Shown here: piece after piece, positions 1,484 through 63,123 of the stretch
Numbering within the stretch: position 1 is the stretch's first letter
Layout: each line of letters begins with the position of its first letter
NCBI GenBank assembly: GCA_965218975.1
Contig: OZ244717.1
Coordinates: 1,536,001-1,600,000 of the forward strand
DNA length: 64,000 nucleotides
Direction: 5' to 3'
Source: Candidatus Oxydemutatoraceae bacterium
GTDB taxonomy: Bacteria; Pseudomonadota; Gammaproteobacteria; Poriferisulfidales; Oxydemutatoraceae
Notes under the pieces: generated by a model
The model's input: only the letters and a program-made list of their open reading frames with translations
The model's database searches: none
What the model was told of the DNA's origin: nothing
Program-made: the position numbers and the translations under genes

Positions 1484-3838
1484 TTATACACAGTCCGGAT
1501 GATTTTCTTGAGTAATCTTATGGGTTTGCCAATAATGTTTTTGGACGGCACGGTGTGATGTAACTTGAATTTCATCATTTAATAAGGCATCGGTAGCCGA
1601 CCCTGCCAAAGAATCGGGCGGAAAATAAAGGCGGATGGCACCGCTTTCGGCAGTATTGTATACACTAACACAGTGATCGCGATATCTTTGCACCACCGAT
1701 GCGGCGGGGAAATCGAATCGGTTGCGAAAGCCGCTGGATACAATGGCAATTTTTGGTCTGACTGCTTTTATAAAAGATACTCCGGACGAAGTTTTGCTTC
1801 CATGATGGGGCACCGATACCGCATCAACATTTAATTGTATGCTATAACGCCTTAGCAATTGATTCTCCGCTGATTTTTCTATGTCGCCTGTTAATAGCAA
1901 TTGATGATCGTTATTGGATATTCGTAATACGCACGAAGCGTCATTTTCCGACAATCTTTCCGATAATAATTCCGAAGATGGGTGGAGAAAAGTAAAATAC
2001 ACGTCATCCCAAACCCACTGTATGCCGTCATGGCACCTTTCAAACTCGGAAAAAACATAATTTCGCTCACTGCGCCCGCCGATATACTTTTTTCTTACGT
2101 CGAATCGGCTAAGAATCACGTCGGCGCCCCCGGCATGGTCTTTATCGCTATGCGACAATACCAACGCATCCAAATGAGTAATATTGCTGCCGAGTAAAAA
2201 CGGCAATATAACTGCAGAGCCTAAATCGAAACCTGATGGATATTTAGCGCCCGCATCAAATAATAAAGTATGTGTGCGGGTGCGAATCACTACCGCAAGC
2301 CCTTGCCCGACATCTAAAAACACACTTTCAAAAGCGCCTTTAGGAATGGAAGGCGGCGGAATCAATGATAAAGTGCAAAGAAATAAAACACCGGCGACCC
2401 TATAATAAAAATTACACGTCGCAATAATCAATATCGCTCCAAGCATCGCACTGAAATAACACCACCACAACGGCTTATGGAACCATTGAAACAGCCGAAT
2501 ATTTTTTATGAATTCCGCTGCATACCAGAAACCATCAAGCAATAAATCAGCGGCCCACACCAAACTTGCTGCTATTGGTTCATTAATAATGGAAAATAAT
2601 GTCGCCAATAATACACATGGCAGTACCAAAAAACTTGCGTAAGGAACCGCAAACAAATTGGCAATCGGAGCCAGCAAAGCACCTTGGTTAAAGAACCATA
2701 AACTAAGCGGCAATAAAATGATCGGCAAGTACAAATGCAATCCTATCCATCGCACCGGTTTTATCGAAGTTTTTGTCGCTTGAATAAAAACGACGATGCC
2801 GCCGACTGCCGAGAATGAAAACCAAAACGACGCGGATAAAGTGCTGAAAGGGTCAAGACACAATACCACTAGCAAAGCCAATGATAACGAGTTGATAAGT
2901 GAGGTTTGCCGCACTACTATCCGAGCAAACAAAACACATCCGAGCATAATTAATGCTCGTTGCGTAGGCAATGAAAAACCTGCGAGCCAAGCATAAGTGA
3001 AAGCAAATAGGAATGCGACTCCTCCCGCCATTGACGGTGTGGCAATATAACAACGGGATAAAAAGTATTTTCGCCACAGATAGAAAACGCATTGGTAAAT
3101 TAGAACGAAAAATAATGCAATATGAAGACCGGAGATAGCAAACAAATGTCCGACTCCGGATGCTGTTAACAATTGCCACTGATGTCGAGTCATGTATCTA
3201 CGTTCGCCTAATGTCAATGCCAACACCGCGCCGATATTATCTGTGGCGCTTAACTGAGCAAACAGTTTGTCATAAACGTATTGGCGAAACTTTTGTGCAA
3301 GATTTGGCGCCGCATTGGGAACATACGACCAACTACGGATATAACCGGTCGCCCCGATACCATGAGCAAATAAAAACCGCTCGTAATCAAATGTATGCGG
3401 ATTGCTGTAGCCGTGCAAAGGTTTTAGCCGTACTCCGGCATGAATAGTTTCGCCTAGTTTCAACTGCGGGTCTTCACCATACAAACCTAAGCGCAATTTA
3501 TCCGGGACCGACAAACCACCTGCGGAAACTTCATGGTCACGAACGACTACCGCATCCAAACGAGTATAAAAATTTTGATAGCTCGGAATAGATACAATCC
3601 GTAAATTTAATTCGGCCTCTCCTCCGTCAAAACCTTGCATTCCATCTAATCGTATAAAAGCCGCATACCATACCCAACAAAAACCTAATACAAAGACACC
3701 AACAAAACGTGCAATCGAATAGCGAATAAATATGCCGGCAACCAAAGGAGTGATCGCCAACCAGCCGATGTTGGGCAATAGCGGCAGTTGTTGAAATAAT
3801 ACATTTCCAAGCAAAAAAGCGATCGCATGGGTAAACAT
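1484..3838 (-). CDS. comEC: DNA internalization competence protein ComEC/Rec2
   Basis: HLFAISGLH competence-domain motif, many TM segments, C-terminal metallo-beta-lactamase motifs (DVGQG, SHSDKDHAGG, LTGDIE, PHHGSKTS). Confidence 0.95.
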   Translation of the reverse strand: MFTHAIAFLLGNVLFQQLPLLPNIGWLAITPLVAGIFIRYSIARFVGVFVLGFCWVWYAAFIRLDGMQGFDGGEAELNLRIVSIPSYQNFYTRLDAVVVRDHEVSAGGLSVPDKLRLGLYGEDPQLKLGETIHAGVRLKPLHGYSNPHTFDYERFLFAHGIGATGYIRSWSYVPNAAPNLAQKFRQYVYDKLFAQLSATDNIGAVLALTLGERRYMTRHQWQLLTASGVGHLFAISGLHIALFFVLIYQCVFYLWRKYFLSRCYIATPSMAGGVAFLFAFTYAWLAGFSLPTQRALIMLGCVLFARIVVRQTSLINSLSLALLVVLCLDPFSTLSASFWFSFSAVGGIVVFIQATKTSIKPVRWIGLHLYLPIILLPLSLWFFNQGALLAPIANLFAVPYASFLVLPCVLLATLFSIINEPIAASLVWAADLLLDGFWYAAEFIKNIRLFQWFHKPLWWCYFSAMLGAILIIATCNFYYRVAGVLFLCTLSLIPPPSIPKGAFESVFLDVGQGLAVVIRTRTHTLLFDAGAKYPSGFDLGSAVILPFLLGSNITHLDALVLSHSDKDHAGGADVILSRFDVRKKYIGGRSERNYVFSEFERCHDGIQWVWDDVYFTFLHPSSELLSERLSENDASCVLRISNNDHQLLLTGDIEKSAENQLLRRYSIQLNVDAVSVPHHGSKTSSGVSFIKAVRPKIAIVSSGFRNRFDFPAASVVQRYRDHCVSVYNTAESGAIRLYFPPDSLAGSATDALLNDEIQVTSHRAVQKHYWQTHKITQENHPDCV

Positions 3839-15762: not shown

Positions 15763-18700
15763 AGGTCCTCAATTTCAAACATCAGGCGATGGAAGTCTTC
15801 CTCGATAAGCCGCGTCTTCCACAAATCGTTGGGGGTTTTGAGGTTTTCGAGATTGTTGCTGCCGTTGACGTAAATGAGATCGAGCTCATTATCCTTTGCG
15901 AGGTAACCTCGCTTGGTGAACCATTCGTCAAGCACAAGATTGTCTTGTTCCGGGTTTCCGGTAAGCTTGCGCCAGATGATGAGCGTTCGACGACCGTCCG
16001 GCGTGGTTCCTGTAACCGTGCGAAACCAGTACGGGCCGTTCGCATCTTTCTTGAGGCGGCCTTTCATCCGAAGGCGAAGGCGTTTCTCGCTGTCGCGCCG
16101 GAACGTGGCGCTGAAAGCCTGCGGCGCGGCGATGTGCCGAACCGTTAAGCCGATCAGCCAATTGAACGTCTCCAGAAGATCAGCGTTGACCATGCGGCTC
16201 TCATCCGACCCCGGACGCTTGACTTTGAGCTTGTACGCCGTGGGGTCGGCAAAGGCTTGCACATTGAGCAACGACTGACTGCCGCGCGTCTCAACGTTGA
16301 GCATATAGCGGAGAATGTACTGTTCTCTAAGTCCTTCCGCACCTTGTGCCTCAGCAGAGGTAAGTAAATCGGCCTGTCTGTCGGTTCGGTGTGTCTCAAG
16401 GTTGTTGAGCGCGTCTTCGTAGGATTCAAGCCGGACGACCTTGACGATGCGTGGGCTGCGCTCGGCTTCCTCGGGTGTGGCGAGGCGCTTGGGTTTGCCG
16501 TCTTTCCATGCCGGCGTGAAAGTAACCTTTTTGATGCGTGGCAGCAGCACTGTGTCGAAGTAGTCGCCCATCTCGACGAGGATGAAGCGCATTGGCACTC
16601 CAGTCGTGCGAACTATCTCCAGGATACTCTGCGCTGTAGTGCCTGACCCTGCGAAGTAGTCGAGAACAGTAGAGCCTGGCGCGCTTGCAAACGACAGCAG
16701 CCTACGCAGAAGCTGCGGCGGCTTGGGATTCTCAAAAAAATCACCATTGCGACCGAACTGCGATTGCAGTGAATATGCACCAAGACGCCCATCAAGATCC
16801 AACACGCTTCGGAACGAATCCTTGTAGTCACTGAGGTATAGCTTGATCTGAACGATGCGGTTTTCGTCTGGACCGTAAATGAGACGTCCCTTGTCAATGA
16901 AGTCGTGTCTCATCGTGCCTTCTGGGAACCTGTACCCATTTGCGGGCAATCGCATGGGTTTCCCCGTACGTGGATGCAAAATCTCGTACTCGTGGCCTCC
17001 CGGGTGGGGGTTGTGGACACTTTGGGAGCCCGTATAGACGCCGTCGCTGTCGACAAACTTATACCGGTCCACCTCACCGAGAACTGCGGCGTTGTCTCTG
17101 ATAAAGTTTCTCAAGTTAGATTGGATTGCCCTCAGCGTAGCGCCCTGCTCCTTCAGGCGTTCATATTCCTGGAGCAACAGCTCTTTCGCATCCGCGAAAT
17201 CATTCTTCCAAACGGGTGCCGCTGTGCCGATGTCTCTGACGTGGCACTGCACGTATTCGTGTTCGATGGCGATGCGAGTCGGATTGTTGTCACGAGCATT
17301 CCGCCAGACGACGGTGCCGGCGTCGTTGGTGGCTCCGAACGTCTCGTCCAGAAGCCAGCTGAGTTGACGGAACTCGTTGCCATCGATTGAGGAAAGAAAG
17401 GCTGCATCCTGTCGCAGGAGGGACGCGGACGACAAAACTCGGTCCTGCATCATCGAGAGCCATGAGGCACTTTGGTAGCCGTCCTTGTACGGGAACGCGT
17501 CCTTGCGGGTGTTATACGGCGGGTCGATGTATATACACTTCACCTTCTCGCGATACTGTGCCTGCATCAGGTTTAGTGCCTGAAAATTCTCGCTATGAAA
17601 TAGAACGCCATCCGTCTGCTCATCTATATCACTCATCGCTTCAAGTAGGCGCGCAGTAAACCTTTCATCAAAATGCCGCGTGTCTACCACCAGGGTTGAA
17701 TGCGCTTTTAGGAACTCGGGTTTGAGTTTTTTGCCGTAACCGGGCGTAGCCAAATCGCCCTTAATCTCGTCTATGGCAAACAGCTGCACCCACTCCTTGC
17801 GCTGAGTTTGATTTGCAGCGATTTCAGCATAGAATTTTTCCGGGATACACCCCGTCCGGATACACCAAGAGGTGCCCACGACGAACTTCTTCTTCAGCCA
17901 CAGCTTTTTCTGGAAGTCTTCAAGCTGCGCGAGGAAGTCAATGATCTTGCCCGCAATTTTTCGGATAACCTTGACCGTCGAGAGATACTGCTCAACGCGA
18001 GGCGCGGATTCGTTCTCTATATCGTCGAGATGCATGACTTCGTTCTTAATGTAAAAATCCAACTCCCGACGGAGGAAGGGCCCGAGATCCTTGTGGATGA
18101 AGTAGTCAAAGGTGTTGCGTGCGGTGTAGCGGTTCAGATGCGCTTCCAGGCGGCTGTACTCGGCTTGCTTGCCGTTAGTCATAGTATGCGGCTTTTTTAG
18201 CTCTGCAATCCATTCCGCCAATGCCGCGTCGGTTATGGTCTTTATGCGCTTGACGGCGAGCGTGATCAAATATTTTTGAACAGGTGGTTTATTTTTTCCG
18301 TTACGTTCGTCTTCGGGCCAATCGCTAAGCGTCGCCGGGCGGTATTCAAAGCGGATGACGAGCTCCTTGCCTTGCTCACCGTCTTCCTCGGTTATAAAGT
18401 CACGGTCCGAGCTTCCCGGCGCTGCCGGAAGAAACACACGGTTGTTTTCTTCACGCGCTTTGACGTTGCCATGCTCGCCTTCGGCAACGTCCGCCAGCCG
18501 AAAGTGCACGCGCATAGGTTTCTTTTTGTCGTCAGGCCGCAGGCGAAATGCGTAATCGCACAGGTACTCGCTCGTTTTAATGTAGTACTGATCCTTGTTG
18601 GCCCAATGAAGCATGACTTCCTCGCCTTCATAGGGGACGGCATAAACGCCCGGCTTGTAAACGCGTTTTGCGAGAAAGTCGCCTTCGGAGTAGTAGCGGC

Positions 18701-55456: not shown

Positions 55457-55825
55457 GGGGGCGATTTTGGTTTCGACGGAAATTGCAAAACTGGAGGTGC
55501 ATGCCGAGCCGTCAGGGAAACTCGTAAAACTGGTCTGAAAAACTATAGTTGCCAACGAAGACAACTACGCACTGGCGGCCTAAACAACCGACCATGCCTC
55601 TTATGAATGCGGTGCTTGTGCCCATTCAATAAGGGTCATACACACAAGATCGCAGCGAGATATTCCGCGTCTTTGCTGTTAAAGCTTGGTGACAGGTAGC
55701 GGAATCGCCAGTAGCAACTCCCGTTTAGTCGGAAGTTACTGGTAAAATAATTAGACTAAACTAAGCATGTAGTACCAAAAGCAGAGGATTTGCGGACGCG
55801 GGTTCGATTCCCGCCGCCTCCACCA
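55457..55825 (+). ncRNA. ssrA: tmRNA
   Basis: 5' GGGGGCG pairs with CGCCTCC-ACCA (G3.U wobble); T-arm GCGGGTTCGATTCCCGC; tag frame 55551-55583 encodes ANEDNYALAA*. Confidence 0.97.
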
Positions 55826-55938
55826 CCACTGGACTTCCTATAAAGTCCGATAGCGTCTAAATATTCTTTATAAACTAATCTATTAAGGTGCTTCATTGTC
55901 TTATAGTGTATAAAGTTATGTTGTAAAATCCAGCAGCT

Positions 55939-55991
55939 TTAGTAATACTCTTAGTAATACGATACATATTTCCTGAGGAGCGTATTACTAA
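55939..55991. promoter_or_regulatory. Probable integrase arm-type binding sites
   Basis: TTAGTAATAC direct repeats at 55939-55948 and 55951-55960, plus an inverted copy GTATTACTAA at 55982-55991 just before the integrase ATG. Confidence 0.7.
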
Positions 55992-55992
55992 A

Positions 55993-57180
55993 ATGCCACG
56001 GATAACCAAACCTCTCAGTGAAACAGAGATCAAACATGCCAAACCCAAAGACAAAACTTATAGCCTAGCAGACGGGAAAGGCTTATATCTCAAAATCAAG
56101 CCTAGCGGCTATAAAGTTTGAGTCTTCAACTATTACAGGCCATACACCAAAAAGCGTGTTGCTGACACCCTTGGCGAATACCCAGTTATTACTCTCGCCA
56201 AGGCACGTTCCAAACGTAATGAATACTTAAAGCTGCTTGCGGATGACATTGATCCGATTGAATATAAGCTTGAAAAGAAGAGGCTTCATAAAGCAGCCGA
56301 GTATCCAAATCACATGCAGAGGATATCTATAGATCATTAGAACTTCATATTTTCTCACACTCGGCAAACTGCCTATCCATAAAATCAGAGCAAAGCATGT
56401 CATTGAAGTACTAGACCCGATAGCGGCAGAAGGCTCCCTAGAAACTGTTAAACGCCTAACCCAGAGGTTGAACGAGATCATGGTCTACGCCGTGAACACC
56501 GACTTGGTAGCTGCAAACTATCTCTCAGGAGTCAGTAAAGCGTTTGCTTCACCGAAAAAAAACCACATGCCTACCCTAGCCCCAGAGCAGCTGCCTGAAT
56601 TAATGCGCACCATTGCTGATGCCAGCATCAAAAAGACTACTCGATGCCTGATTGAGTGGCAGCTGCACACAATGACCCGACCAGGCGAAGCAGCTGGAAC
56701 AAGATGGGAAGAGATAGATTTGGAGAAAAGATTTTGGGCTATTCCTGCCATGCGCATGAAAAAGAAACACCCTCATAAAGTTCCCCTCTCGCCGCAAATG
56801 CTGGCTCTGCTCAAAGTAATGAGGCCAATTAGCGCAAACAGGGAATATGTGTTTCCAGCGGACAGGAATCCTAGAGCCCACACTCATCCAGCAACAGCCA
56901 ACATGGCGCTTAAACGAATGGGGTATGGCGGCTTGTTGGTAGCACACGGTCTAAGGGCTCTGACCAGCACTACACTAAATGAGCAAGGCTTTAACCCTGA
57001 CATTATCGAGTCGGCATTAGCCCATACAGATAAAAATGATGTCAGGGGTGCATATAACCATGCTGAATATCTGGAGCGAAGAAAAGTCATGATGTGTTGG
57101 TGGTCTGCGACCATATAGAAGCTGCTGCAGATGGCAACCTAAGCCTTTCAGGTACAAAACAATTGAGGGCCGTCAACTAA
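55993..57180 (+). pseudogene. P4-like tyrosine integrase pseudogene
   Basis: MPRITKPLSETEIKHAKPKDKTYSLADGKGLYL arm-binding domain; in-frame TGA at 56119-56121; frameshift/deletion near 56300; catalytic TRPGE, HGLR, LAH, AYN in 56468-57118; frameshift near the C-terminus. Confidence 0.9.
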
Positions 57181-57194
57181 CCCCGCTCTTAGCC

Positions 57195-57377
57195 TCATGC
57201 TTGTTGTCTGGACTCAATCCACTGAATGACTGCGCTTTCATGCCAGCCGAGCGAGCGGGCCCCGGTCAGTTTAATCTGTTTCGAGAAATTGCCCCTGGCA
57301 ATCTCCGCGTAAATGGTTGAGCGTGATAGTCCTGTTATACGTTGGACGTCCTTTAGCCTCAAAATCCTGAAACTCAT
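57195..57377 (-). CDS. alpA: AlpA family regulator / recombination directionality factor
   Basis: ILRLKDVQRITGLSRSTIY..I..G.F.KQIKL...GW.ES.V.QWI. Confidence 0.92.
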   Translation of the reverse strand: MSFRILRLKDVQRITGLSRSTIYAEIARGNFSKQIKLTGARSLGWHESAVIQWIESRQQA

Positions 57378-57573
57378 TCATACCTCTTTTTTTCTACATG
57401 GCGCTCCTATGTTATGCAGAAAAAATAGAGAAACAATAGAAAATCGATACACGCGTTGTTTCGGTTTTTCGTATATTCTTTAATCGTTTTGCCCCCGAGA
57501 CGCACTGATTACGTTAGCGCTTTACGGAAAATCGGTAAAAACCGCGACAGTTCTTGTGACGGGTTTCTATAGA

Positions 57574-58108
57574 CCCCTGATTTATGACTGTGCTGTACTA
57601 GCTTTAATGATCTGTGGCGACTGCATGACCTAGTCGCAACAAGTCCTTTACTGGTATTCCAGTAAAGGCACACAGGTCCCGGTGGGGCTTGTGGCAAATG
57701 GCACTTCCGGGATTATTGCAATCCTGCGAGCACCATCTAATCAACGTTTAGCTGTAACCAAAAGGAGGTGTATCACCCGTGAAAATAAACGGCGAGCCGA
57801 ACGCAACCCGTCTCTGTGAAATCTTTACACAGAGACGGGTACGCAGTAGCCACGCTACCGCTCGTCAAATCAAGATATTGGCAACATGACCGCCGATACA
57901 AAAGCCGACCAACGCTCCGGTGCGGCCCTTCATCCGAAAGGCATTGAAGGGTACAGCACGCAACCCGCAGAGACTTACCTGTTCAGGCGTGCCAGGCATC
58001 AGGGGCTTGTCATTGTCCATACTGTCCCCAACGGACAGTCGCAGGCTGGGCGAACCAGCAAGGCGCGACCGGCGCTCAACCCGGTTTAACACTTACCAGA
58101 ATCAGGGG
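57574..58108 (+). ncRNA. Candidate large structured non-coding RNA (or structured ssDNA element) upstream of a recombinase-like gene
   Basis: About a dozen stems read by eye, including 10-bp (57645-57668) and 13-bp (57806-57840) perfect hairpins, two three-way junctions, a GAAA tetraloop and a 9-bp end-to-end pairing; no credible ORF. Confidence 0.55.
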
Positions 58109-58113
58109 GATAT

Positions 58114-58503
58114 ATGGGCAAAGTTGGCGGCAACCGGAATTACGGCTACGGCAAGAAGCTGGCCTGGACCGGCAGGAATGCCCTGGCGAACCGGTATGGC
58201 GAGGGTCATTTCAGCACCCGAGCCACGCATGAGGAACGCTGAAATCAGTTTGCTAGTTTCCTGAAACAGGAAGGCATCAACGATGCCATAAAGATCAACC
58301 GGGACGTTATCCAGCGCTATGCAGAGTATCTGAGTACACTGGTGCACAGTGAAGACATGAAAGTAGCTTATGCGCAAAACCTGCTCTCCACTGTGAATGT
58401 CGTGCTGAAAACCATGCGCAAGGACAAGGTCCTGACCATCAGGCCTGCACAGTGCGTAGGACACCGTTCCAATGTCGAACTTCTCGATTGTATTTATTTA
58501 TAG
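58114..58503 (+). pseudogene. N-terminal half of an integrase-domain (tyrosine-recombinase-like) protein; internal stop and 3' truncation
   Basis: Manual translation MGKVGGNRNYGYGKKLAWTGRNALANRYGEGHFSTRATHEER*NQFASFLKQEGI...YAQNLLSTVNVVL...RSNV; RBS AGGGGGA; TGA at 58240-58242. Family call rests on recalled resemblance, not a search. Confidence 0.65.
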
Positions 58504-58709
58504 CCTGCTTTTGCTTATTCTGAATTTGGCGATTTTGACTCTGAACTTGAGACAATGATATTTTCTTAACCATAACCTGAGTTCCTTTCTTTTAATCTGC
58601 TACATACCATTAGAATAAAAAACACACCATCTAATCTCTCTTTTGCCATCTCCTAGTTCGGTAACATAAACTGAAAACAGTGGCCAACATTGCTCTATCT
58701 TAACCCGTG

Positions 58710-61418
58710 TTACACCGAGTAAGTGTTACTCAGAAAATCCTTCAACGATCTGTTTTCCAAAACTTCATCATGAGGGATTAACAGATAGTGCCAAGGTTTT
58801 TCGCCTTGGGTTTGGAGGTATTTACTTGCGTTGCTACACCATTCTTTTGCAGATTCTGCTTTAGCTAGCACCGCTGCATCTTCTATATCTGCACGAGCCT
58901 TGGTTTCTACCATCAACACACAATCATCTAGCTCTGCAACGAAGTCAGGGACATACTCTTTATGCTCAACACCCAACTTATACACAATCTGAAACTGACC
59001 ATTGACAGGTTTAAACCATTTTAACGCGTCACGTTCCAGTATTATTGAAAAGCGGCGCTCTGTATCGGTGTCAAATTTTTGCAACGGATAAAGACACTTT
59101 TCAAAGCCACCAAATAACATCTGTTTGATCTTTCCTACCTCTTCTAATGTCTCGCGGTAGTTCTGCACTGGTTGATTGGTTGCCTTGGTATAGACCACTT
59201 CTTTTAATGGAGTAAAGCCTGCTCTAACCGTTACTTCATAGCCACTAGCTGTTTCCCAGAAATGTTCAGCCATTTGCACGTGAATGTTATCGGCAATTAA
59301 TTTACCGTAGCCAAAGAAAATATTATGCAACTCGCCTTCAGAGTATTCTTTAACATCGCTGAAATAGGCAACTGCCTGACCAGCTAGATTGTAAATCAAG
59401 TCAGCGTGTTCGTCGTAGGAGATATCGTCCTTGTCTACCAAATGCTCAACAATATAGTCCTCAAGCCGCTGATACTTCTTTTGAGGCTGCGCCGATATTG
59501 AAATCTGTTGATTGGTTTGCAGGCTTTGGGAAATCAGTTCCCGGTCTGATGGCTGTAGATTCAGGTTCCCCAGATCCAATGTGAATGGATGATAGCCATA
59601 ACTGACTTCGCCTTTAGGCACCATTACAATACGCGGAATATCAATAGTCTGCTCAACCATCAATTGCGTTGCCTTAGTTACAACAGCTGCTAAATCAGCT
59701 TTTTCTTCTTTCAACAGGGCTAGTTGATCACCGGTAAGGTGCTCGGAGACTCGTTGCACAATCGCTTTTTGTATTTTCGTCGATAAAAGCTCTTTGGAAG
59801 TTGGCACTTCAACCGGATTATGCTGAAAACCCTTGATTACTTGCCATGCGGCATCGGCAACTTGGCGTTCGCGATCCGTTCCAAAGATCAATGTTTCAGC
59901 TTTGCCCGGATACTCGAGCTTTTTGCTTGATGCCGCGTCGGCGCTGGTCAATATCGTCTCTAGGTTAGGCTTAATGGCAACACTTTCCTTGGGTGTGTCC
60001 TTTTCATCTGAATCCAAAATAATCTGCTTTATGCGCAATGGATTTTCAGGATTATTGGCCTCATCAACGATTTCTTGAAAGCGGTCGTGAGCGATAATAC
60101 TGAGTTGATCAACTGCATCAACATCAGTTCGTTTACCATATGGCAGGCGCAAACCCCGGCCGATGGACTGTTCGATTAAAGTACGAGCATTGGCGGCTCG
60201 TAATGGCACAATAGTATATAGGTTAGTGACGTCCCAGCCTTCCTTGAGCATATTCACATGAATGACAACTTCCGTTGGTTCATTGAAACTTTCTACTTCT
60301 AACAAACGGGTAACCATTTCCTCTTCTGCAGACCCACTGCGACTACTGTCTACCTGAATAACCTTTCCTTTATAGCGACCATCAAATAATTGATTTTCAA
60401 GTAAATCCAGTAATTGCGCTGCGTGTGTCGTATCACGGGCGATCACCAGCATAAAGGGTTTAACTAGTGTTACCCCGTGCTGTTTAGCATATGTGAGCAG
60501 CTCCACCTTAGTACTTTCGTGTAGCCTGATACCGTCTTCCAGCTTGATGCGCTCTAACTGTTCAGCATTGTACTGAGAGACATTAAAATTTCGCTGAGTA
60601 ACAACAGCAGGTTCTTTTACGAAGCCATCGTCCATAGCTTGCGCCAATGGGTAATCTACTATCACATTCTTAAATGACACTGGCCCGCGGTTGCTTTCAG
60701 TGAAGGGCGTTGCCGTTAGTTCGAGACCCAACAATGGATTCAGTTCATTAAGTGAGCGTACTCCTGCACTAGCGCGGTAACGATGGGACTCATCCATTAA
60801 CATCACCAAATCCGGAAGACTGGCCAGGTAATTAAAATAACTGTCACCTATAGTTTCACGCAAGCGTTTAATACGCGGCGCCTTTCCGCCACGTACTTCA
60901 GAATTGATTTTGGAAATATTAAAAATGTTAATGGAAACGGGCGAAAGGATATCGCTAGTCCCTGTCGACTCATAGTTATCACCGGTGACAATTGGTGGCG
61001 GATAGGTAGTAAACTCTGCAATACCTTTAAATACGTATTTCGCAGTATTGGGAGTAAAGTCGGTAATTAGCTTATCGTAAATAGTAAGGTTGGGGGCAAG
61101 CACAAAAAAGTTCTTGATGTCATGTGCTAAATGTAAATAGCTGACAAATGCCCCCATCAAGCGCGTTTTACCCACACCGGTAGCCAATGCAAAGCATAGG
61201 GATGGGAACTCCCGTTCAAAATCGGTGAGTATTGGGAATTCAGCAGACAACATTTTCAATAGTGAATCCAGGTCTCGTTGTTTTCCCAACATAGCAGGCG
61301 CAATATCCAGTGCAACAGCCAGGGAGCGAAGTGACTCTTTCTGAGGAGCGCGGAGACTCAGTCGACTAGTAATGTAATTAATAATCCTGAGGTCCATGTT
61401 ACCGACTCTTCTCATCAA
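58710..61418 (-). CDS. Type III restriction endonuclease Res subunit
   Basis: LSLR.PQ, LATGVGKT, MDESH, LTATP, EQSIGRGLR, YVPDFVAE...VETK. Confidence 0.92.
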   Translation of the reverse strand: MMRRVGNMDLRIINYITSRLSLRAPQKESLRSLAVALDIAPAMLGKQRDLDSLLKMLSAEFPILTDFEREFPSLCFALATGVGKTRLMGAFVSYLHLAHDIKNFFVLAPNLTIYDKLITDFTPNTAKYVFKGIAEFTTYPPPIVTGDNYESTGTSDILSPVSINIFNISKINSEVRGGKAPRIKRLRETIGDSYFNYLASLPDLVMLMDESHRYRASAGVRSLNELNPLLGLELTATPFTESNRGPVSFKNVIVDYPLAQAMDDGFVKEPAVVTQRNFNVSQYNAEQLERIKLEDGIRLHESTKVELLTYAKQHGVTLVKPFMLVIARDTTHAAQLLDLLENQLFDGRYKGKVIQVDSSRSGSAEEEMVTRLLEVESFNEPTEVVIHVNMLKEGWDVTNLYTIVPLRAANARTLIEQSIGRGLRLPYGKRTDVDAVDQLSIIAHDRFQEIVDEANNPENPLRIKQIILDSDEKDTPKESVAIKPNLETILTSADAASSKKLEYPGKAETLIFGTDRERQVADAAWQVIKGFQHNPVEVPTSKELLSTKIQKAIVQRVSEHLTGDQLALLKEEKADLAAVVTKATQLMVEQTIDIPRIVMVPKGEVSYGYHPFTLDLGNLNLQPSDRELISQSLQTNQQISISAQPQKKYQRLEDYIVEHLVDKDDISYDEHADLIYNLAGQAVAYFSDVKEYSEGELHNIFFGYGKLIADNIHVQMAEHFWETASGYEVTVRAGFTPLKEVVYTKATNQPVQNYRETLEEVGKIKQMLFGGFEKCLYPLQKFDTDTERRFSIILERDALKWFKPVNGQFQIVYKLGVEHKEYVPDFVAELDDCVLMVETKARADIEDAAVLAKAESAKEWCSNASKYLQTQGEKPWHYLLIPHDEVLENRSLKDFLSNTYSV

Positions 61419-63123
61419 ACAACTCTACCTGTTCTGGTTTTTGCTCAGTCTCAAGTTGGGGTAGATTCGCTACATTCAGGCTGTAGTCGTCATGACCCCA
61501 CTCATAGCGATTGAGAACCATCTTGGGAATTTTCTTCAGAGTTAAATTTTCAAAGCGGTTGACCTTGCAGCGGAATGCACTGCAACATACTAAAAGCGTT
61601 CTGTCTTTGCCCACTTCGTCAGACAATACCTGCAGCTGCTCTAACGAAAGATTTTGTGTTGTGACATAAATAAAATCACTCTCGGTAGAATATCCCTGCT
61701 GCCAGAACACTGAATCTGAAGGCTCATAGGTAAAACCCTGCAGCTTGCAAATAGCTTCCGCCAGCATTTCCGGGTTGTAGTCTTTATTCACTACCCAGCG
61801 GCCCCAGCGGTCCTGCGCCAGTAGTGAAGGTGCAACCTTGTAATATCGAAAACCACCACCACCCTGCCAGTTTACAGGTTTGGAAATACCGCCTTGATCT
61901 TCACCATCAATCACTTTTTGCAGACGGGGAATAATATGAGTATGACAGTGCTCGCCTAGTTCTACCATAATCCAGCGGCGGCCTACTTTCTGGGCTACTG
62001 CACCAGTGGTACCAGAACCTGCAAAGGAGTCAAGCACTATATCTCCTTTATTTGAAAAGTGCTTTAGTATTATTTCGATAAGCTTTTCCGGTTTTTTTCC
62101 GCTTCGAAACTCTACTCTGCCTTCAAGGCGACAATTCCCGAAACTACTTGCGAGGTCATGAAAATTTTCTATAGGGCTCGTTTGGGTTGTAACTCTTTCT
62201 TCTAGCTGTTTAACAGGTACGCCCTGATAATATTTTCCTTTAGTTGCTCCTTCTCGCTTAGGGCCAGTGAAATATCTATAGTCAAATTTGTCATCTCCTA
62301 TTCCATATACTTTGTACAGAACACCTAGACCGTCCTTTTCGTATCTACCACTAAGATAATCTCTAAAAAAACGACCTGATGAATTACCATCTAGAATAGA
62401 GCCAGTAGCCCATATTTCTTTAAGGCCATCCTTAGAGCCTTCCATTTTTTCAATCGAATAAGTTCCTTTATTGAAGACAACAACGGTTTTTCCACCAAAC
62501 TTCAATTCCTTGCCGTCTTTTTTTTCTTTTACATAAAAACAAAACTTTTCAAAACTCTTTTTTTTCACATTCAAGTTTGGTTGACTTCCCCATGCTTTTC
62601 GATATATATGAACTTGTTCGATTTGTTTGTGAAAACTCATATCCTGTTTTAACGTTTTGTCTGCATACCTGACTCGAACATACATCGTACTTAAGTAATT
62701 TTCCCTCCCGAAAATCTCATCCATTAGAACTTTAAGGTAATGCCCTTCCGAATCGTCTATGTGACAGCAAATAAACCCGTCAATACTAAGCAAGGATCGA
62801 AGTGTTGCTAATCGGTCTCTCATTAGAGACAACCATGTTGAATGCTCTAAACCATCATCGTAATACTCAAAAGCATTTCCAGTGTTATATGGGGGATCAA
62901 TATAAATGCACTTTACCTTGCCAGCAAATTCCTGCTCTAGTGCCTTTAACGCTAACAAGTTGTCACCAAAAATCAGTTTGTTATCGAAAATGTCGTTATC
63001 GGTTACCCGATACTTGGCATGGTATGACTTATCTGGTTCTTCCAGCAAAATACGCGGCTCCAGCTTAGGGCGTTTGTCTTTGCCAATCCATGTGAGTTCA
63101 AGTTTGGTTTTTTGTTTAGTCAT
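61399..63123 (-). CDS. Type III N6-adenine methyltransferase Mod subunit
   Basis: [52 protein letters not shown]. Confidence 0.93.
   Translation of the reverse strand: MTKQKTKLELTWIGKDKRPKLEPRILLEEPDKSYHAKYRVTDNDIFDNKLIFGDNLLALKALEQEFAGKVKCIYIDPPYNTGNAFEYYDDGLEHSTWLSLMRDRLATLRSLLSIDGFICCHIDDSEGHYLKVLMDEIFGRENYLSTMYVRVRYADKTLKQDMSFHKQIEQVHIYRKAWGSQPNLNVKKKSFEKFCFYVKEKKDGKELKFGGKTVVVFNKGTYSIEKMEGSKDGLKEIWATGSILDGNSSGRFFRDYLSGRYEKDGLGVLYKVYGIGDDKFDYRYFTGPKREGATKGKYYQGVPVKQLEERVTTQTSPIENFHDLASSFGNCRLEGRVEFRSGKKPEKLIEIILKHFSNKGDIVLDSFAGSGTTGAVAQKVGRRWIMVELGEHCHTHIIPRLQKVIDGEDQGGISKPVNWQGGGGFRYYKVAPSLLAQDRWGRWVVNKDYNPEMLAEAICKLQGFTYEPSDSVFWQQGYSTESDFIYVTTQNLSLEQLQVLSDEVGKDRTLLVCCSAFRCKVNRFENLTLKKIPKMVLNRYEWGHDDYSLNVANLPQLETEQKPEQVELFDEKSR

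Follow-up and report, generated by a model that had tools for sequence, protein, structure and literature searches.

The closest described system is the mobilization region of SGI1, in which the P5 promoter, ORF S022, oriT (125 bp), sgm-sRNA, mpsA and mpsB follow each other in this order, according to the available parts of PMC6414798 and PMC9299015. MpsA is a tyrosine-recombinase-like, atypical relaxase (MOB_M). Its relaxase activity is still termed suspected in the accessible text of PMC13635750, and such activity was shown for distant relatives only, like MobK (PMC8152469, accessible part). The oriT is located 304-428 bp upstream of mpsA, and between the two lies the core of an essential RNA, sgm-sRNA, at ~12-290 bp upstream and read towards mpsA (PMC6414798, PMC9299015). 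The primary RNA is 650-700 nt long, runs in the same direction, and its start precedes a Shine-Dalgarno (SD)-led ORF overlapping oriT (PMC6414798, PMC9299015). The minimal oriT of 125 bp excludes the sRNA core, which is a diffusible factor: the RNA complements in trans, and the expression of MpsAB is independent of it (PMC9299015). It is the one RNA factor known for MOB_M relaxases, and only single sequences underlie its predicted fold.

MobK of pIGRK and TcpM of pCW3 are also tyrosine-recombinase-like relaxases (PMC8152469). As in the locus described here, a long intergenic region with inverted repeats lies 5' of the relaxase-like gene of pIGRK (456 bp), where it holds the oriT (minimal oriT 186 bp); in contrast to the putative RNA proposed here, no RNA factor is reported for pIGRK in the available text of PMC8152469. 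MobK itself was absent from our homologue searches, being too distant.

The window analysed here is a stretch of 64,000 nt from Candidatus Oxydemutatoraceae bacterium (contig OZ244717.1). At 57574-58108, it contains a decayed version of the non-coding DNA that lies 5' of the gene for an unusual DNA-transfer enzyme in mobile genomic islands. Upstream of it, the tmRNA gene and the P4-type integrase fragments (55457..57118) are the integration end of the island, followed by an alpA-like gene:

55457-55825, + strand: tmRNA gene (Rfam RF00023, 195.2 bits)
55993-56121 and 56468-57118, + strand: P4-type integrase fragments, two ORF fragments matched by PF13356 and PF00589
57195-57377, - strand: alpA-like gene, divergent from the element (PF05930, E 8.5e-16)

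An alpA-like gene also adjoins the element in loci L007, L009 and L010. The cargo of this P4-integrase/alpA island at the tmRNA gene is restriction-modification, and no traG, traN or sgaC gene was found in the part of the island visible in the window. A sigma-70 scan of 57150-58300 returned no promoter-like site. With 57400-58500 as the query, blastn gave no match in the E. coli genomes and PLSDB plasmids, and the DNA of the window element was present in none of 40 related genomes.

The original prediction placed a broken, second recombinase-like gene 5 nt after the end of the structured region. This spacing is correct, with the ATG at 58114:

58114-58476, + strand: remnant of an MpsA-like (PF12835, MOB_M-type) pseudogene, identified by translation and by homology to intact relatives

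The gene is indeed broken. It carries an in-frame TGA at 58240-58242, and its homology to intact relatives ends at 58476, at about codon 121 of ~317; the blastn homology of the remnant to L010 stops at the same position. When the stop is read through, the remnant shows 85-88% identity over 121 aa to PF12835 proteins of full length (315-317 aa). Among the homologues listed, PF12835 was present in 118 of 120, and all four relatives that were rescanned scored 29-44 bits (cut-off 23). This Pfam family is the signature used by Bioteau et al. for MpsA-like 'INT_DTR_like' proteins (PMC10484663, available part). Residues R162, H257, R260 and Y312 are invariant in the family alignment of 23 intact relatives; the corresponding list given for SGI1 MpsA is R162, H247, R250, H251 and Y319 (PMC9299015). 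The window fragment comprises the N-terminal domain only (PF13102, 22.2 bits, just below the cut-off) and has lost the entire catalytic domain (R, HxxR and the C-terminal Y), so that it is a member of the family by descent, not by function. The gene is better called a relaxase-like mobilization gene (PF12835) than a second recombinase.

In the relatives, an ORF of at least 70 aa is found at the stop of the MpsA-like gene in 65 of 68 loci, 44 of which have the family motif in this ORF. The partner protein has no Pfam or PDB sequence match, and a PDB sequence search with the family profiles of the MpsA-like and MpsB-like proteins yielded nothing usable. Its predicted structure (pLDDT 84.8) most resembles the integrase N-terminal domains of XerA, 3nrw, XerH and Cre, all at E>0.1; an integrase N-terminal-like fold has been reported for MpsB too (PMC6414798). 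The mpsB-like gene is absent from the window. With a nonsense codon, two thirds of the relaxase-like gene lost and the partner gene missing, the module is dead here, and the window copy is a fossil that carries no functional weight. Candidate hosts of an intact module are Exilibacterium tricleocarpae R142, with two copies (L016 and L019), and Pseudomonas fragi pPFL.

Conservation upstream of homologous genes is extensive. A sequence profile (nhmmer) finds the element 5' of 56 of the 74 homologous genes. In 82 sources, the covariance model R1 has 47 matches at E<=0.01, every one of them on the strand of the gene; 45 of the 74 loci are matched, and in 35 of these 45 the match ends 11-16 nt before the gene. 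These loci were gathered through peptide patterns, and an HMM-based search would be less biased. Among 150 genomes of the class that were sampled without bias, one new R1 match was obtained, 14 nt 5' of a 52%-identical homologue and with the inverted repeat described below ~100 nt further upstream. R1 matches two of 12 family D loci and none of the five plasmid relatives; with nhmmer, the 3' half is detected in each of the 12 family D loci. Small plasmids with PF12835 genes share the layout of pIGRK, in which a long intergenic region with inverted repeats precedes the gene.

In the window copy, the + strand of 57574-58108 folds with a minimum free energy of -212.1 kcal/mol, compared to -166.3 +/- 7.1 for shuffled sequences (z -6.47; 0/100 shuffles as good). 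The - strand also beats its shuffles (z -4.10). All the stems listed in the original prediction are there when the sequence is read directly, and a repeat search recovers the 13/16-nt inverted repeat at 57806-57840, the 10-bp hairpin at 57645-57668 and an end-to-end pair, 57568-82/58100-14. Their fate in the relatives is uneven. Both proposed three-way junctions and the closing helix lack conservation: the junction stem 57609-16/57671-78 is 57.6% paired without any double change, the GTAGC/GCTAC stem is 29% paired, and the end-to-end closure 57574-82/58100-08 beats shuffles in the window copy alone (0/15 relatives at the 5% level). Stems 57791-97/57860-66 (68% paired) and 57677-82/57707-12 (64%) are present here and are weakly supported in the relatives. 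The conserved helices belong to the parts described below, the first of which is the 5' section:

57537-57570, + strand: inverted repeat of the A5CC...GGT5 type at the 5' boundary of the conserved element, where the profile alignment starts
57617-57637 and 57645-57668, + strand: two conserved hairpins of a lineage-specific 5' domain, recognized by covariation in alignment A5
57762-57889, + strand: the motif AGGAGGTG (57762-57769), then a short ORF from GTG 57779 to TGA 57889 (36 aa)

This 5' domain is recognized in families A and B alone (18 full-length sequences). Of the 15-16 family A/B rows that extend into the 5' part, most have AAAAACC...GGTTTTT at its boundary; a terminator-like site was predicted at 57561-57576, and inverted repeat I1 was found too. 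The 57537-57570 repeat looks like a terminator hairpin and may be comparable to the terminator-like inverted repeat near the P5 start site of SGI1 (PMC9299015). In A5, a structure-blind MAFFT alignment of 17 sequences, each of the two hairpins has three pairs changed on both sides, and the stems 57617-37 and 57645-68 are kept, with 100% and 95.8% of cells paired. The string GGAGGTG is found in 19/19 family A/B rows, and families C and D have no SD. In eight of the 17 sequences scanned, a start codon lies 3-13 nt 3' of a AGGAGGTG-type motif, and the resulting peptides, of 4-107 aa, share no common frame. The short ORF of the window is non-conserved and passes through the inverted repeat. Its position resembles that of ORF S022 in SGI1, an ORF that overlaps oriT and is preceded by an ideal SD (PMC6414798, PMC9299015).

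The first main part is an inverted repeat:

57806-57840, no strand assigned: near-invariant inverted repeat ACCCGTCTCTGTG-N9-CACAGAGACGGGT, a candidate for the core hairpin of oriT

In the window, it is located 274-308 nt 5' of the ATG. The pattern GTCT[CT]TG..CA[GA]AGAC occurs 250-560 nt upstream of the gene in 47 of 68 eligible loci, with three other occurrences in 548 kb, and 44 of these 47 loci have a single copy. Four of the five small plasmids have the repeat as well, with proteins that are 34-42% identical. A second pattern match in the genome that contains the window, at C1:1276785, was treated as chance, since neither the single PF12835 remnant nor any match of the element profile is near it and its surroundings read by eye like ordinary coding DNA. 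In the 53 sequences compared, stem lengths of 12-15 bp prevail, the loop measures 2-22 nt and often contains an inner hairpin, and the outer stem covaries. The perfect 13-bp stem that had been predicted is present, and its sequence is invariant, as befits a site of recognition and not an RNA helix maintained by covariation. Hairpins recognized by a protein on one strand, with a conserved stem and a variable loop, are known from relaxase-bound oriT inverted repeats, from integron attC sites and from the attP of CTX phage. Those systems are not known to have an adjacent covarying multi-helix domain of ~200 nt, unlike the loci studied here. By analogy with SGI1 and pIGRK, the MpsA-like enzyme would cut at an oriT whose recognition core is, most likely, the 57806-57840 hairpin.

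The two 13-bp inverted arms, next to a protein family with the tyrosine-recombinase catalytic set, are also reminiscent of loxP and dif core sites, which are built of two inverted arms. The PF12835 protein would then use the double-stranded repeat as the core site of a site-specific recombination (e.g., multimer resolution), and everything else would be accessory. This is highly improbable: a spacer varying between 2 and 22 nt, often with its own hairpin, does not fit two monomers bound at a fixed distance, nearly all loci have one site only, and the islands already have a separate integrase.

The second main part lies between the repeat and the gene:

57903-58100, + strand: 3' structured domain, defined by covariance model R1 and by covariation
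58086-58099, + strand: single-stranded tail TTAACACTTACCAG between the last hairpin and the ribosome-binding site, near-invariant in alignments of 47-50 sequences

A multi-branch stem (57907-58011) holds the hairpins 57926-51 and 57956-92 and is followed by three more hairpins at 58021-39, 58045-59 and 58068-85. Four of these hairpins (57926-51 and the last three) had been predicted from the window and are kept in the relatives, being 70-100% paired. In alignment A4, 85.9% of the cells are paired, a figure inflated by the fitting of A4 to the model, versus 31-36% when the partners are slid. Of the 49 pairs, 45 are changed on both sides, and none of 500 shuffles reaches the observed values. Independent folds of four subfamilies give the same architecture. 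MAFFT on all 50 sequences misplaces the variable hairpins, so that RNAalifold recovers few pairs; the subfamily folds and the covariance model were therefore used in its place. The RNA structure available for SGI1 is an mFold prediction only (PMC9299015), whereas the structure here rests on covariation. Strings like ACTTACC or ACTCACC, resembling the tail, are found upstream of the four folded plasmid genes too. No Rfam family matches the element: the tmRNA alone reaches its gathering score in the scan of the window, and at E<=10 over 57100-58700 the sole match is a chance-level snR70 (16.5 bits, E 3.1). Together, this points to a family-level structured RNA motif without an Rfam family. We propose the 3' domain as the counterpart of the sgm-sRNA core.

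The conservation could also be coding. The product would be a small protein of ~100 aa in L007, L009, L010 and L011, and of 67 aa in the window (57886-58089); indeed, ORFs of 102-107 aa with shared strings follow AGGAGGTG in those four loci. In the lower-GC loci (L014, L016-L020, L052, L053, L032 and L036), no frame on either strand is open beyond ~30-75 aa over 420 nt. The length differences of the hairpin loops are not multiples of three, substitutions compensate each other across helices, and families C and D have no SD. With no consistently open frame across the relatives, we rejected this explanation, the least probable of all those considered.

An RNA acting on the + strand had been predicted from the G.U pairs. 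This bias is clear in the five best helices (89 G.U versus 23 A.C) but drops to 125 versus 90 when all 49 pairs are counted. A G.U pair is invariant at 58067/58086 (47/47) and near-invariant at 57967/57982 (41/47). G.T wobbles also form in single-stranded DNA, and hence these data do not separate an RNA from a transferred DNA strand, to which a strand bias is equally suited. The helices might accordingly matter in the transferred strand only, as an extended oriT fold, an ssi priming site or a single-strand promoter, with no functional RNA; a sequence-invariant repeat with a flexible loop is what a protein-recognized DNA hairpin would look like. We consider this unlikely. Invariant G.U pairs at helix ends, such as those found here, are more typical of RNA. 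Moreover, the minimal oriT of SGI1 leaves the diffusible sRNA core outside (PMC9299015).

Equally unlikely is a purely cis-acting role, in which the structure would be the 5' UTR of the mpsA/mpsB-like operon and control its translation or stability, without any function in trans. The domain does abut the ribosome-binding site, as the 11-16 nt left between most R1 matches and the start codon illustrate, and in the window copy the SD region is a possible pairing partner of the 5' end (z -3.5). However, sequestration of the SD is not conserved, since no relative among the 15 folds better than its shuffles at the 5% level, and the trans complementation and RNA-independent MpsAB expression of SGI1 (PMC9299015) speak against a leader.

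The layout of the PF12835 loci corresponds to that of SGI1 in several respects. Both have a PF12835/MpsA-type gene followed by a small gene, whose product in the present loci may resemble an integrase N-terminal domain as in SGI1, and preceded, on the same strand, by a non-coding stretch of ~570-700 nt. In both, inverted repeats are found ~300 nt before the start codon, ~260-280 nt of structured sequence separates them from the gene, an SD-led, dispensable-looking small ORF overlaps the repeat region, and a hairpin stands beside the start codon. Unlike SGI1, the host of the window copy is a P4-integrase/alpA island at a tmRNA gene, and this copy is non-functional. The proposed link to SGI1 is drawn from the Pfam family, published statements and this matching layout; the texts of the SGI1 papers contain no matching string.

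Conservation, position, strand bias, covariation and the gene family are observed in the loci themselves; the oriT function, the transcription and the role of the RNA are inferred from SGI1 and pIGRK. On this basis, the region is probably the non-coding part of an MpsA/MpsB-type (MOB_M) mobilization module, with an oriT hairpin and an sgm-sRNA-like RNA as its working parts. The module would belong to an integrative mobilizable element inserted beside the tmRNA gene. When single-stranded, the repeat 57806-57840 forms a hairpin, at which the MpsA-like enzyme would cut oriT. The multi-helix domain of ~200-260 nt (57842/57903-58100, + strand) would most likely function as an RNA that corresponds to the sgm-sRNA core, a transfer factor working in trans together with MpsA and MpsB. 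A 5' extension (57537-57800) with the two hairpins and the SD-led short ORF is an additional feature of families A and B. The original prediction offered a non-coding RNA partner of the protein or a single-strand origin as alternatives. Both point in the right direction, and probably both hold. The check that it had suggested, for conservation and covariation upstream of homologues, gave a positive result.

As the arrangement is already published for SGI1, it is not new in kind. Structured non-coding RNAs are also located immediately upstream of recombinase-type genes in IS110 (bridge RNA) and IS1111 (seekRNA). The present loci differ from these by another enzyme family, by the lack of visible variable loops complementary to target or donor and by having no evident programmable pairing. 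Loops complementary to att or target sites, raised in the original prediction, were not seen, and the conserved single-stranded motifs have no complementary site in the window at <=2 mismatches.

More tentatively, the relaxosome could be a ribonucleoprotein with the 3' domain as its RNA subunit, and MOB_M relaxases of the MpsA/MpsB type would then depend on such an RNA partner well beyond SGI1. The RNA might bind these proteins or bridge them to the coupling protein of a helper, with the invariant hairpin and a repeated AACCCG motif as recognition elements shared by DNA and RNA. This is less likely than not.

The window element belongs to a known kind of mobilization module, as a new member that is dead, and is a conserved element, not a one-off. 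According to a 2026 preprint (10.64898/2026.01.13.699239), no relaxases are more common than MOB_M in the chromosomes that it surveyed. A fold supported by covariation in distant PF12835 loci, together with an invariant hairpin marking the likely oriT and a short conserved tail motif, would make the question of how these relaxases work testable outside one island family. The combination of fold, hairpin and tail would also provide a DNA/RNA signature for mobilizable islands and small plasmids that are now typed as non-mobilizable.

The non-coding region at 57574-58108 is located between a divergent alpA-like gene and a short ORF beginning at 58114. A tmRNA gene and fragments of a P4-type integrase lie upstream, so the region sits at a genomic island's integration end.

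Genes surrounding the region in the window
55457-55825, + strand: tmRNA gene (Rfam, 195.2 bits), upstream of the element
55993-56121 and 56468-57118, + strand: P4-type integrase fragments, upstream of the element
57195-57377, - strand: alpA-like gene (PF05930, E 8.5e-16), divergent from the element
58710-61418, - strand: ResIII gene (type III restriction-modification)
61399-63123, - strand: N6_N4 methylase gene (type III restriction-modification)

The ORF at 58114 contains an in-frame TGA (58240-58242). Read through, it gives 121 residues with 85-88% identity to full-length proteins of 315-317 aa. Among 195 candidates, 139 proteins are homologous at E<=0.001. PF12835 is carried by 118 of the 120 listed homologues (in a rescan of four relatives it scores 29-44 bits, the cut-off being 23); it is the 'INT_DTR_like' signature of Bioteau et al., centred on MpsA, the atypical relaxase of Salmonella Genomic Island 1 (SGI1; PMC10484663). 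This relaxase class was named MOB_M by a 2026 preprint, in whose dataset it is the most common class in chromosomes and 96% of its members adjoin an integrase (10.64898/2026.01.13.699239). MpsAB was still only a 'suspected' relaxase as of October 2026 (PMC13635750). MobK, a distant member from pIGRK, acts as a site-specific nuclease; the oriT of that plasmid lies within a 456-bp region before the MobK gene (PMC8152469). R162, H257, R260 and Y312 are invariant in an alignment of 23 relatives; the catalytic residues of SGI1 MpsA are R162, H247, R250, H251 and Y319 (PMC9299015).

As shown by Kiss et al. 2019 (PMC6414798), transfer of SGI1 requires mpsA, the small mpsB gene that immediately follows it, and an oriT of 125 bp. 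A partner ORF of at least 70 aa is found at or overlapping the stop codon of the PF12835 gene in 65 of the 68 loci with enough downstream DNA, and 44 of these 65 match a simple family motif. For a predicted model of the partner protein, built from 19 ORFs (pLDDT 84.8), the best Foldseek matches (all at E>0.1) were XerA, 3nrw (an integrase N-terminal domain; TM 0.61/0.66), XerH and Cre. These matches of a predicted fold are consistent, but weakly so, with the published description of MpsB.

The blastn homology between the window and the closest related locus, L010, ends at 58476, about codon 121. The window gene is therefore without its catalytic domain and without what came after that domain, and the mpsB-like partner gene is lost. 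At 55993-57118, the P4-type integrase is broken in two, an arm-binding piece of 42 aa and a catalytic piece of 216 aa, so the integration module is degraded as well. The genome holds a single PF12835 remnant, at this locus, and two more element fragments without the gene. The window copy of the module is a fossil. Beyond 58476, an AT-rich stretch is followed by the type III restriction-modification pair on the - strand; in the related locus L009, a ResIII-type gene occupies the equivalent place, behind the mpsB-like gene. In L010, an IS-type transposase gene (rve_3/HTH, 2098-3183) separates the alpA-like gene from the conserved element.

The element is conserved upstream of homologous genes. 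With only the window sequence as query, nhmmer detected it upstream of 34 of 74 related loci taken from species-representative genomes, and after three profile rounds upstream of 56. Counting the window, 18 sequences of families A and B have the element at full length (about 575 nt), and about 30 further sequences have its 3' part (about 310 nt). It begins near 57537 and stops a few bases 5' of the start codon. The profile alignment of relatives thus agrees with the 3' boundary of the original prediction (58108) and moves its 5' boundary about 40 nt further out. No described Rfam family matches the region: only the tmRNA reached the gathering score in the whole window, and the sole match at E<=10 over 57100-58700 was a chance-level snR70. 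The accessible portions of the literature on sgm-sRNA, PF12835 and tyrosine-recombinase relaxases with noncoding RNA yielded no description of such a motif outside SGI1.

The 3' domain lies between an inverted repeat and the start codon. Four subfamilies, aligned and folded separately, share one helix order with differing sequences. A covariance model of this domain (R1, 57903-58100) was constructed from 19 family A/B sequences, with a structure specified for it. A search of both strands of 82 sources (672 kb) at E<=0.01 gave 47 matches, every one on the strand of the gene: the window itself, another decayed copy of the same genome (L002) and 45 of the 74 loci, 35 of these 45 matches ending 11-16 nt before the gene. 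In the R1-derived alignment, which is fitted to R1 so that pairing and covariation values lean towards the structure, standard pairs fill 85.9% of 1958 cells versus 31-36% with partners slid 1-3 columns, 45 of 49 pairs show double-sided changes, the covariation score is 0.387 versus about 0.06, and none of 500 shuffles reached any observed measure; the margin is large nonetheless. Covariation upstream of homologues, the check set by the original prediction, is present.

Best-supported helices of the 3' domain (R1-derived alignment)
57917-23/57996-58003, + strand: helix
57956-61/57987-92, + strand: helix
57967-70/57979-82, + strand: helix
58021-27/58033-39, + strand: helix
58045-49/58055-59, + strand: helix
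58068-72/58081-85, + strand: helix

Among 150 evenly drawn genomes of the class, R1 matched one new genome; this match is 14 nt upstream of a 52%-identical homologue, and the inverted repeat precedes it by about 100 nt. R1 had no match in 5 of 5 plasmid relatives nor in 10 of 12 family D loci; nhmmer finds the 3' half of the element in all 12 of the latter. The two decayed fragments elsewhere in the window's genome, at G000:C1:147540-147677 (L003) and 152387-152693 (L002/L088), have no PF12835 gene behind them; the copy at ~152.4 kb has lost profile positions about 130-346, including the inverted repeat, and still scores 83 bits with R1.

The inverted repeat at 57806-57840 had been listed as a 13-bp stem. 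As a covarying helix it does not hold, its sequence being nearly invariant. The motif GTCT[CT]TG...CA[GA]AGAC is found 250-560 nt upstream in 47 of the 68 loci with enough upstream DNA, with 3 other occurrences in 548 kb; variants with TGTCTCTTTG occur in three loci (L054, L056 and L083). The motif likewise occurs in 4 of the 5 small plasmids inspected, whose proteins share just 34-42% identity with the query. In a set of 53 sequences, stem length is mostly 12-15 bp and the unpaired centre measures 2-22 nt, often with an inner hairpin. The outer stem shows compensatory substitutions (e.g., ACCC/GGGT, CGCCC/GGGCG, CCAGCC/GGCTGG), and one arm position reads U.G (+ strand) in 17 of 47 sequences, another reading C.A in 5. 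A double-stranded core site binding two monomers is argued against by this free loop length combined with a fixed stem sequence, which argues instead for a hairpin recognised on one strand. In the window, the repeat is located 274-308 nt before the ATG. The SGI1 oriT, which contains inverted repeats and spans 18016-18140, is adjacent in position: with the mpsA start at 17712, it is located 304-428 bp upstream (PMC6414798).

Three loci (L012, L014, L017) carry a second GTCTCTG...CAGAGAC repeat about 420 nt upstream of the main one. The motif (G/T)CAACCCG occurs three times in the window: in the left flank of the inverted repeat (57801-57810), in a conserved 3'-domain internal loop between two helices (57958-57967) and in the last hairpin loop (58074-58083); among relatives, the internal loop's AACCCGC hardly varies. 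Of 100 plasmid records that matched the PF12835 protein by tblastn, MOB-suite typed 84 as non-mobilisable; many of them are plasmids of 4-15 kb in which a gap of about 0.8-1.7 kb precedes the gene, and the inverted repeat of the 4 plasmids mentioned above lies in this gap.

All stems of the original prediction are present at their stated coordinates when the sequence is read directly, three of them also in an inverted-repeat search, and the region folds better than chance: -212.1 kcal/mol on the + strand versus -166.3 +/- 7.1 for 100 dinucleotide shuffles, none as good (z -6.47; - strand, z -4.10). G.U outnumbers A.C by 125 to 90 over all pairs and by 89 to 23 in the five best helices. Pair 58067/58086 is G.U in 47 of 47 sequences, and 57967/57982 is G.U in 41 and A-U in 3 of 47. 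The z-scores favour the + strand in the window and two of four plasmid relatives, the other two being tied. The functional strand is therefore that of the gene. These data fit RNA as well as single-stranded DNA. By analogy with SGI1, RNA is the likelier molecule for the 3' domain. Nagy et al. 2021 (PMC9299015) showed that transfer of SGI1 also requires an RNA transcribed towards mpsA. The primary transcript of this RNA (sgm-sRNA) is 650-700 nt long and starts before ORF S022, and the functional core occupies mob coordinates 1295-1572, between oriT and mpsA. The RNA can complement in trans, and MpsAB expression is independent of it; its mechanism is given as unknown and its structure comes from mFold prediction only (PMC9299015). 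A simple sigma-70 promoter scan of 57150-58300 returned no promoter-like site.

For the 5' domain, pairing was scored after structure-blind alignment of 17 sequences with MAFFT. Two hairpins are kept, 57617-37 (100% paired) and 57645-68 (95.8%), with 3 double-changed pairs each. The helix proposed to close their junction, 57609-16/57671-78, is not (57.6%, no double change); pairing is better for a local hairpin at about 57674-88 (73.5%). In the nhmmer alignment, helices 57791-97/57860-66 and 57677-82/57707-12 are paired in 68% and 64% of cells, and the proposed GTAGC/GCTAC stem falls to 29%. End-to-end closure by 57574-82/58100-08 is significant in the window only (z -3.5); in relatives, 0 of 15 beat shuffles at the 5% level.

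An SD-like motif, GGAGGTG (within AGGAGGTG, 57762-69), occurs in all 19 family A/B rows. A start codon follows 3-13 nt later in 8 of 17 sequences scanned, the peptides having no common frame or length. In the window, a 36-aa ORF (57779-57889) after the motif runs through the inverted repeat; likewise, S022, which has an ideal SD, overlaps oriT in SGI1 (PMC9299015). Conservation of the element as coding sequence was rejected, because no consistently open frame was found across relatives. In L007, L009, L010 and L011, the SD-like motif lies about 330-350 nt upstream of the gene, and behind it begins an open frame of 102-107 aa, which covers the whole 3' domain, stops at the TAA of the conserved tail and is not shared by the other relatives.

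The original proposal of a large ncRNA or structured origin for the recombinase-like gene probably stands as an oriT-like hairpin plus a probably transcribed 3' domain, without the 13-bp stem as a covarying helix. We consider it likely that the region forms the cis and RNA portion of a mobilisation module of the MpsA/MpsB type. The oriT-like hairpin would be one component, and the 3' domain would provide a structured, + strand and probably transcribed one in the position of the sgm-sRNA core, a likeness of position to SGI1 as known here from its published layout. In families A and B, a 5' extension is added.
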